A stretch of 64,000 bases of DNA from Escherichia coli (GTDB taxonomy: Bacteria; Pseudomonadota; Gammaproteobacteria; Enterobacterales; Enterobacteriaceae). How positions within the stretch are numbered: the first letter of the stretch is position 1; each line of letters opens with the position of its first letter. A program made the position numbers. The stretch lies in the NCBI RefSeq assembly GCF_001677475.2, contig NZ_CP015229.1. One strand, 5' to 3'. Positions 5,801 to 8,800 of the stretch are shown piece by piece.

Positions 5801-8800
5801 CTTCCTTTCGCATCGAGAAACGAGATTAACGCCTCGCCGGTCCCCAGTTCCTGGATTGCCTTTTCGGTATCAAACGCCGGATTGGCCCGCATGGTTTGCG
5901 CCGCAGCTTTTACTGCTTTCTGATCTTTGGGCGTAAAAGCCCGCAAAGCGTGTTGAACGCGATTACCTAGCTGTCCGAGCACATTATCCGGAATATCTGA
6001 CGGGTTTTGCGAAACGAACCAGACGCCCACGCCTTTTGAGCGAATAAGCCTTATCACCTGCTCAATCTTATCCAGCAGTACCTGCGGTGCATCGTTAAAC
6101 AGCAGATGCGCTTCGTCGAAGAAAAACACCAGTTTTGGTTTCTCCAGATCGCCCGCTTCAGGCAATTGTTCATACAATTCTGAAAGCATCCACAGCAGGC
6201 TGGCGGCGTACAGTTTCGGCATCTGATAAAGCTTCTCGGCGCTGAGGATATTGATAACGCCTTTACCGTTGGCATCGGTACGCATCCAGTCTTTGATATC
6301 CAGCATCGGCTCACCAAAAAAGTGCGCCGCGCCTTGCTGTTCCAGCGATAACAGCCCGCGCTGGATGGCACCAACCGATGCGCTACTGATATTACCGTAC
6401 TGATTCTGGAAGGATTTGGCGTTATCGCCGATGTACTGGGTAATCGCCCGCAAATCTTTAAAGTCGAGCAGCAACAATCCCTGATCGTCCGCAATGCGGA
6501 AGATAATATTCAGCACGCCAGATTGCACATCGTTGAGATTCAACAGCCGCGCCAGCAACAGCGGCCCCAGATCCGAAACCGTCGCCCGCACCGGGTGGCC
6601 TTTCTCGCCAAAGATATCCCACACCACCACCGGATTAGCATGAGGTTGCCAGTCATTTACGCCGATATTTTTAAGCCTTGCGAGCAGTTTTTCCGACGCC
6701 GTTCCTGCCTGTGCGACGCCGGTCAGATCGCCTTTTACATCAGCCATAAACACCGGAACACCGATTTCCGATAGAGACTCCGCCAGTTTTTGCAGCGTAA
6801 CGGTTTTACCCGTCCCCGTTGCGCCAGTAATCAGCCCGTGACGGTTAGCCATTCCCGGCAGTAAAAAAAGTTCTGTGTCCGGCGTGCGGGCAATTAACAG
6901 GGGTTCGCTCATGAGATTTCCTCCAGTTTCCTGCCTGGAGTATAGGCAACGGCTGCGCACTCTTCACCGCTAAATTCAGCAGATTGCGAGACGCCTTCCA
7001 AAGAGATTTAAACGCCGGGCGACAGGCACCCGGCAAAGAGATCAGAAGTCAGCTTTCAGAACCACGCGGTAGCGCGCTTTACCATCGCGTACATGCTGGA
7101 TAGCGTCGTTAATTTTCGACATCGGGAACAGTTCGGTAGTTGGCGCAACCTTGCTGCGGGCGGCAAAGCGCATCAGCTTACGCAACTCATAAGGCGTGCC
7201 GGTAGCAGAGCCAGAGACACTGCGATCGCCCGCAATTAACGTAAAGGCCGGAACAGACAGCGGCGTGAGAACCGCACCGACGGTGTGGAAATTACCGCCA
7301 TACGTCAGCGCCTCAAAATAAGGCTGCCAGTCGAGGCTGACGTTGACGGTGTTGATAATGAGATCGAACTGCCCCGCAAGTGTTTTCAGTGCCTGCGGAT
7401 CGCGGCTATTCACCACTTTAGCGGCACCCATCGCCAGTACTTCCTGCTCTTTCGCCGGATTCGAACTAAAGGCTGTCACCTCGCATCCCATTGCGTGCAG
7501 AAGTTTTATAGCGATATGCCCCAGCCCGCCAATACCAATTACCCCAACGCGGCTGGTAGCAGTGATATGGTGCATCAACAGTGGTTTAAAGACCGTGATA
7601 CCGCCGCACAACAGCGGCCCGGCGGACTCAATATCAATATTTTCTGGCAGTGGAATCACCCATTGCCAGTCCGCACGCAACTTCTCGGCAAAGCCACCGC
7701 GATTCATAATCGTCGGCACCGCACCTTGCTCGCAGTTGATCTGATTACCGCTAATACAGGCGTCGCAGTGACCACAGCTACGCGCCGTCCAGCCAATCCC
7801 GACACGCTGACCGACCTGCAAACCTTTATCCTGTGCGGCGCTCCCGAGCGCCACCACGCGACCAATCACCTCATGCCCGGCAACCAGTGGATATTGTGAA
7901 AATCCCCATTCGTTATCGATCATTGACAGATCGGAATGACAGATCCCGCAGTAATCCACCTGCACTTCAACATCTTGTGGCTTCAGCTCACCGGGATGGT
8001 ACTCATAAACTTCCAGTTCGCCGCCCGCTTCTTTTGCGGCATAGCTTTTTATCATCGACATTTTTTGTCCTTCTCTGGTGTTGTCTGGGAAGTGTAGAGC
8101 ATGGCAGGGCGGGGTGCCTGGAGTGTGACAAAGGTTACACATCACTGTATGCAATGCTGAAAATTTCAGCACTTAGCGAGGTGCGAGCAAGCTGGCTCTT
8201 GCATGGTGGCGTGCGACAGGTATAATCCACAACGTTTTCCGCATACCTCTTCAGTGCCGAAGTGGCGAAATCGGTAGACGCAGTTGATTCAAAATCAACC
8301 GTAGAAATACGTGCCGGTTCGAGTCCGGCCTTCGGCACCACATCGTATGCAAATCGAGTCGCTCAAGAGCGGCTTTTTTTGTGTCTGAAATCACCCATAT
8401 CCGTGCAGTATATAGGCCTGCCAGAAAAGCAGTTCAGTATTCTTCATTTTGTAGTCGATGGTCCCAAGTTTGCTCTGGCTGGAAGCTGCATCGTCCACAT
8501 TACGTGGGCAGGGTGGTTTCGCTATGCTACTTGAACGTTTTGACCATGTGGCTCAGGTAGCTAATATCAAAAGACGTCATTTTGTCTCCACGCCCACCTT
8601 GGTGAACATTCAATAAATAGTTTCGGTCGAGAGCAGTTATGTAGGGCTAGCAGACGAGATGCGCAGACATCTTGTTGAAGACAATTTTACTGACCACCTG
8701 AGAACGCTATTCTACCGAATAATATTTATTATCTTGGTGAATAATGATGATTACCTGTGTAACTATGGTTTTATGCTGATGGGACCGGCAGTACAATTTC

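Follow-up and report, generated by a model that had tools for sequence, protein, structure and literature searches.

The 64,000 nucleotides of Escherichia coli DNA analysed here (assembly GCF_001677475.2, contig NZ_CP015229.1; "the window" designates this whole stretch) very probably carry a common and intact idn-less allele of the slot between ahr and yjgR, not a fresh deletion, this allele being one of two main ones with fixed boundaries that can be swapped by recombination. The slot would have two main alleles, bounded by the ahr stop codon on one side and by a point 39 bp upstream of the yjgR start on the other. In the empty allele, ahr would be followed by its own terminator hairpin within a 129-bp spacer. 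The idn allele would place 5074 bp (idnK-idnD-idnO-idnT-idnR) straight after the ahr stop, with 78 bp gone and a 12-bp piece of the terminator left beside yjgR. Transferred DNA recombining in the conserved yjgR and ahr genes could then bring either allele into any lineage. The elements concerned are:

5410-6912, minus strand: yjgR, encoding a DUF853 / HerA-like P-loop ATPase, left flank (ORF list, tblastn and RefSeq annotation of matching E. coli genomes)
6913-6951, minus strand: yjgR leader of 39 bp with the Shine-Dalgarno sequence inside, common to the empty, idn and Enterobacter dak alleles; its far end is the left breakpoint
6952-7029, unstranded: 78-bp stretch unique to the empty allele, replaced by a single T in K-12-type idn-positive strains
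7013-7035, minus strand: hairpin just 3' of the ahr stop, reading GCCGGGUG-CCUGU-CGCCCGGC and then GUUUAAAUCUCUUU on the ahr sense strand
7030-7041, unstranded: 12-bp CCGGCAAAGAGA abutting the ahr stop codon; the same 12-mer stands at the left breakpoint of idn-positive E. coli
7042-8061, minus strand: ahr, encoding an NADPH-dependent aldehyde reductase, right flank (NCBIfam, tblastn, K-12 alignment)
8256-8340, plus strand: leuX, tRNA-Leu(CAA), a hotspot of island integration beyond ahr (ARAGORN, Rfam tRNA match)

Both flanking genes lie on the minus strand with intact reading frames. By tblastn, YjgR (500 aa counted from the ATG at 6912) is 99.6% identical to its K-12 counterpart over 487 aa and Ahr is 98.8% identical to that of K-12; the latter also scores 550 bits against the NCBIfam AldhRedAhr equivalog, whose cut-off is 470. 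The spacer between them measures 129 bp (6913-7041), very close to the value of about 130 bp given in the original prediction, which had moreover stated that in K-12 the idn genes lie between these two genes. This gene order is right, because the annotation of MG1655 gives the order yjgR-idnR-idnT-idnO-idnD-idnK-ahr-leuX. As had also been proposed, idn is missing from the junction: tblastn with the five K-12 Idn proteins found no idn gene in the whole 64-kb window, the only matches being paralogues, namely a GntP-family transporter at 26121-27392 (40%) and ahr itself against IdnD (33%). Nor did tblastn, or a blastn search of the window with the K-12 idn segment, reveal any idn remnant at the junction.

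On the other side of ahr, the 3' flank of leuX in the window (8341-14000) holds a stretch of about 5 kb with no integrase and no large island. It contains an ORF of 682 aa (9018-11066) that is a frameshifted "hypothetical" in the best-matching genome, together with a homologue of a phosphorothioated-DNA-binding restriction endonuclease and a truncated sialate O-acetylesterase, and is followed by nanM, nanC and the fim operon. In K-12 this place is occupied by the KpLE2/PR-Y element.

The junction had been described as clean, and alignment with K-12 MG1655, the check proposed for it, bears this out, setting the breakpoints at 6951/6952 and 7041/7042. K-12 homology runs up to position 6951, 39 bp upstream of the yjgR ATG, and is found again from 7042, so that the right breakpoint is the ahr stop codon itself (TCA on the plus strand, 7042-7044). 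In a first-pass alignment, 90 window-specific bases (6952-7041) occupied the place of 5087 K-12-specific bases, and the K-12 idn insert, idnR through idnK, comprises 5074 bp located exactly between 7041 and the ahr stop. The 78-bp stretch has no significant similarity to the idn segment and no Rfam match; six sampled idn-less E. coli and E. albertii have kept it, and Citrobacter werkmanii has a more diverged version. When the 90-bp allele-specific spacer was compared by Smith-Waterman with the idn sequences of K-12 and of Citrobacter sp. FP75 on both strands, only a positional 12-mer rose above shuffled controls.

The K-12 copy of this 12-mer, CCGGCAAAGAGA (L001, 6105-6116), comes after the single T at the left breakpoint, 5 kb away from ahr; CFT073, TCM_B_2 and O104:H4 likewise have an exact copy, and in Citrobacter FP75 it can be recognised as CCATCAAAGAGA. 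Scored against the 5-kb segment as a whole, the match is not significant, since 15 of 200 shuffles reach its raw score, and it is the position that counts. In idn-positive strains the relic corresponds to the ahr-proximal side of the hairpin present in the window, with the partner arm missing. A caveat relevant to polarity is that it amounts to a half-hairpin of 5-6 nt plus the motif CAAAGAGA, which is found twice in the spacer.

These breakpoints bear directly on the idea that this particular strain recently lost idn by deletion, whether through illegitimate recombination, an IS-mediated event or the excision of a mobile element. The bare absence of idn and the proximity of the leuX hotspot would both fit such an event. 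However, deletion from a K-12-like allele cannot give this junction, because the 78 bp are absent from idn-positive strains; the junction is not derivable from their allele by removing DNA, and this origin is effectively refuted. Besides, the same junction is found in 3217 genomes and in other species, and the spacer holds neither an IS nor an idn remnant. The K-12 idn segment consists of idnR, T, O, D and K only, with no mobility genes, and its ends, read directly, have no flanking direct repeat and no target-site duplication. Integrase or transposase, att sites or direct repeats, and a duplication at the segment ends, which would betray a mobile element, are all missing there. A recent strain-specific deletion is thus extremely improbable, and "absent" should not be taken to mean "deleted in this strain": judged by its sequence, the spacer is a conserved empty allele.

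That the locus was collapsed by an assembly artefact has a practically negligible probability. The window sequence is clean, neither ORF is interrupted, and thousands of independent assemblies have a spacer that matches at 95-99% identity, although one public assembly, that of E. coli MLI104K2 (NZ_CP116925.1; L004, 8430-9060), does have an apparently erroneous sequence in the slot. There, about 600 homopolymer-rich bp between yjgR and ahr are annotated as a hypothetical protein plus a LacI-family pseudogene in a RefSeq "complete" assembly. MLI104K2 had been considered as a "decaying idn" intermediate and was set aside on account of this apparently erroneous, homopolymer-rich region.

The distribution of the two states among E. 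coli shows how ordinary the junction is. In a collection of 5426 complete genomes, the empty junction, counted where at least 80% of 6900-7060 was covered and matching at 95-99% identity, is present in 3217 (about 59%; 3212 with a longer query), and the idn segment in 2055, chromosomal in all cases. Other states account for about 150 genomes, which leaves little room for genomes combining an empty junction with idn elsewhere. The window agrees with the standard empty allele in gene adjacency and orientation, in the spacer of about 129 bp, in spacer homology over its full length and in having no idn at the site. Compared with the empty junctions of O157:H7, NC101, HS-C and E. albertii, it has the same 129-bp spacer and breakpoints with 2-6 substitutions, and CAAAGAGAT at the ahr stop where most sampled empty strains have CAAAGGGAT, point differences only.

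Consequently, the suggestion that this locus marks the strain as distinct from K-12 stands in that the window is not K-12-like here, but as a discriminator it is weak: since 59% of complete E. coli share the junction, the idn-less state says little beyond that. K-12, BL21, O104:H4 and CFT073 belong to the idn-positive strains, O157:H7, HS-C and NC101 to the empty ones. Each state extends over several phylogroups, and phylogroup B2 contains both (CFT073 idn-positive, NC101 empty). The variable presence of idn is in fact already known from pangenome studies and is a common gene-content polymorphism. The genes idnODRKT are accessory: 83% of pks-positive genomes carried them, as against about 31% of the pks-negative ones, and they vary even within ST95, one clade of which is devoid of them (PMC8545132). 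Groups of STEC strains differ in L-idonate degradation genes (PMC4216125), and Salmonella Typhi is without idnD and idnO (PMC7673413).

A third allele, the main one among these other states and exemplified by E. coli UMB200201_11 (L003, 9014-9540), occurs in about 141 genomes. There idn is missing and all that is left of ahr is diverged fragments of 78-88% identity, without equivalents of window positions 6992-7685 and 7929-8050. With it goes a dptFGH phosphorothioation-restriction island at leuX.

Within the spacer of the window, the most conspicuous element is the hairpin at 7013-7035, with a 9-bp stem and a weak U-rich tail, where a terminator scan places a site at 7031-7010. The fold of 6952-7050 on the minus strand reaches -36 kcal/mol, moderately better than shuffled sequences (z = -2.26), and E. 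albertii and C. werkmanii keep a stem at this position in spite of changes in its sequence. Taken together, it is likely to be the intrinsic terminator of ahr. An exact 9-bp direct repeat, CAAAGAGAT, brackets the hairpin at 6999-7007 and 7034-7042 with a spacing of 35 bp; its second copy takes in the T of the ahr stop codon, where most other strains have CAAAGGGAT. This repeat sits inside the empty spacer and not at the idn ends, and may be due to chance.

The 39-bp yjgR leader is present in every allele and genus examined, with the same boundary in Citrobacter and in Enterobacter/Leclercia. It contains an inverted repeat, CTCCAG-N8-CTGGAG (6921-6926 / 6935-6940), which overlaps the Shine-Dalgarno sequence and of which 5 bp are kept in Citrobacter. 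The hairpin predicted from it gains no stability over shuffled sequence (z = -0.8), and a regulatory role for it is speculative. No consensus sigma-70 promoter for yjgR was detected in the spacer, and an Rfam search of 6600-8500 (E <= 1) returned leuX only, with no known non-coding RNA in the spacer.

Sequence diversity around the slot was profiled in four idn-positive E. coli (K-12, CFT073, O104:H4, TCM_B_2) and six empty ones. Among the former, divergence averages about 0.8% in the idn segment as against 4-8% in yjgR/ahr, the step being sharp at both breakpoints; of the 2055 idn segments of the collection, 1973 are at least 99% identical to that of K-12. This fits a more recent common ancestor for the E. 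coli copies of idn than for the surrounding genes. Among the six idn-less strains, sliding windows over the empty spacer and its flanks give 3.6-5.9%, whereas the divergence of the 129-bp spacer itself, counted from the sequences, is only about 2-5% among the strains sampled and 5.4% against E. albertii. The haplotypes of yjgR and ahr do not cluster by idn state, apart from the last ~7-19 nt of ahr, where all idn-positive strains have A,A at positions 4 and 7 from the stop and all empty ones, E. albertii included, have G,G. The pattern fits frequent homologous recombination in the flanks, and the patchy distribution over phylogroups would follow from it, because conserved flanks allow alleles to be swapped in this way.

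Some further observations concern the region as a whole. Within E. coli, yjgR and ahr show unusual diversity, 2-6.6% in pairwise comparisons, where lptG just beyond yjgR differs by 0.6-3%. In TCM_B_2 and E956, a 180-nt tract near the yjgR 5' end is much nearer to E. albertii than to other E. coli (6-12 differences versus ~20), which suggests that the yjgR-ahr locus is mosaic, possibly through recombination between species. The closest of the 5426 complete E. coli genomes reach 98.5% over 1-5400 of the window, 97.1% over 5400-8300, 98.0% over 8001-33000 and 96.5% over 39001-64000, the latter being the hsd / iatD / espX6 region, and none is close over the whole window. Either few complete genomes come from this lineage, or this part of the chromosome is highly mosaic.

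Another possible history is that this strain descends from an idn-bearing ancestor that secondarily received the empty allele from another E. coli through homologous recombination in yjgR and ahr. Flank haplotypes and idn state occur in shuffled combinations, and both states coexist within single phylogroups and even within ST95 (PMC8545132); therefore, the state changes by recombination in both directions, and such a replacement is conceivable. Nevertheless, the window itself holds nothing that would separate replacement from primary absence, and the empty allele is the majority state and the one found in E. albertii. Secondary loss is accordingly kept as a possible, but less probable, history of this particular copy.

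The age and direction of the polymorphism were approached through outgroups, by a YjgR scan with one genome per species that yielded four informative genomes among the matches listed; the sample is without E. fergusonii, Salmonella and the cryptic Escherichia clades. Among the relatives covered, ahr adjoins yjgR in E. albertii and C. werkmanii, with a spacer homologous to that of the window over its full length and a hairpin in the same place. Citrobacter sp. FP75 has the slot ahr-idnK-idnD-idnO-idnT-idnR-yjgR, collinear with K-12 over 8 kb at 80% identity (78.5-83% for the idn genes, 82-84% for the flanks), its left breakpoint being that of K-12 and its right one lying at the ahr stop. Since idn is found in FP75 and empty junctions in E. 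albertii and C. werkmanii, with idn as diverged as the flanks, both alleles are old: either they predate the split between Escherichia and Citrobacter, or they were exchanged between genera long ago.

Two genomes labelled E. coli in RefSeq, SCPM-O-B-9504 and SCPM-O-B-7615 (NZ_CP144930.1 and NZ_CP144926.1), are also empty at the locus. At ahr-yjgR their identity is 99.4% to E. albertii NBRC 107761 but just ~90% to E. coli, and they are probably mislabelled E. albertii.

As for polarity, the empty allele is probably the ancestral one in Escherichia, the idn allele having been derived from it by insertion after the ahr stop with loss of the 78 bp. The stranded relic, the empty outgroups (every E. 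albertii seen) and the low diversity of idn suggest this direction, and also that idn spread between lineages by homologous recombination. The direction nonetheless carries some uncertainty, because idn is as diverged between genera as its flanks are and the outgroups are few; on the inter-genus age, which matches that of the flanks, idn could equally date from the common ancestor.

The converse history, in which idn was already present in the ancestor of Escherichia and Citrobacter and the empty allele arose once, by a 5074-bp deletion together with a 78-bp gain, and then segregated or was exchanged, appears rather unlikely. K-12 and FP75 do share the allele, the left breakpoint and a right one at the ahr stop, with flank-like divergence, and variable idn has been reported in Salmonella (PMC7673413). 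But two events are required, and the gained 78 bp would have to make up a hairpin with a CCGGC that was already there; every E. albertii genome seen has the empty slot; the diversity of idn in E. coli is far below that of the flanks, and the empty spacer differs by 2-5% between sampled strains. An ancestral empty allele remains the preferred direction in Escherichia.

Beyond polarity, the slot might be a very old presence/absence polymorphism shared across genera and kept by niche-dependent (balancing) selection on the use of L-idonate and 5-ketogluconate, a proposal that we regard as doubtful. If true, the high diversity of yjgR and ahr (4-8% versus 1-3% in lptG) would be its linked signature.

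In K-12, idn constitutes the GntII pathway for L-idonate and 5-ketogluconate, and the GntII / idn genes (idnK, idnDOTR) were reportedly assigned to L-idonate catabolism by Bausch and colleagues in 1998. By analogy, the strain is expected to be without L-idonate and 5-ketogluconate catabolism and to retain the other gluconate functions; gntP and uxuAB are present in the window. No growth on L-idonate or 5-ketogluconate is predicted, a minor gut-nutrient trait, and as a typing marker the idn state is modest and matters little. What is added here is detail on a known accessory locus, namely the exact breakpoints, the stranded 12-bp terminator relic and the occurrence of both alleles in Citrobacter. 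This detail could illustrate, on a small scale, how homologous recombination exchanges metabolic cassettes located between core genes.

Set against the idn locus of K-12, the window is alike in having yjgR and ahr in the same orientation, leuX beyond ahr and the 39-bp yjgR leader, and differs in being without the 5074 bp of five idn genes and in having 78 bp where K-12 has one T. The ends of transcription next to ahr would also differ: in K-12, idnK is convergent to ahr and ends 3 bp from the ahr stop, with a different hairpin inside the idnK 3' end at that position, whereas in the window ahr would have its own hairpin terminator.

The slots of other genera share the left boundary of the window, which in FP75 and in Enterobacter/Leclercia falls immediately after GGAGTATAGGCAA, and differ in cargo: idn in FP75, a 548-aa ORF in Enterobacter/Leclercia and none in the window. 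The 548-aa gene, read as dihydroxyacetone-kinase-like from its sequence alone, is divergent from yjgR in Enterobacter cloacae DSM 26481, Enterobacter sp. Ag1 and Leclercia adecarboxylata (L008-L010, ~8200-10000), and its left boundary is again the one after GGAGTATAGGCAAC. What the slot takes up therefore varies from genus to genus. The Enterobacter/Leclercia spacers do not polarise the event, because they have no significant similarity to either allele, and only Enterobacter sp. Ag1 has the CCCGGCAAAGG motif (z about 3).

Finally, the locus can be compared with the strain-specific "K-islands" and "O-islands" that Perna and colleagues are said to have defined in 2001 by comparing K-12 with O157:H7, and more broadly with accessory metabolic cassettes lodged among conserved core genes. 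It resembles them in the exchange of a non-homologous segment for a short non-homologous spacer between conserved flanks, in the lack of mobility genes and in the patchy distribution over lineages. It differs from them in that both alleles are met again in Citrobacter, with the left breakpoint unchanged and the right one at the ahr stop.
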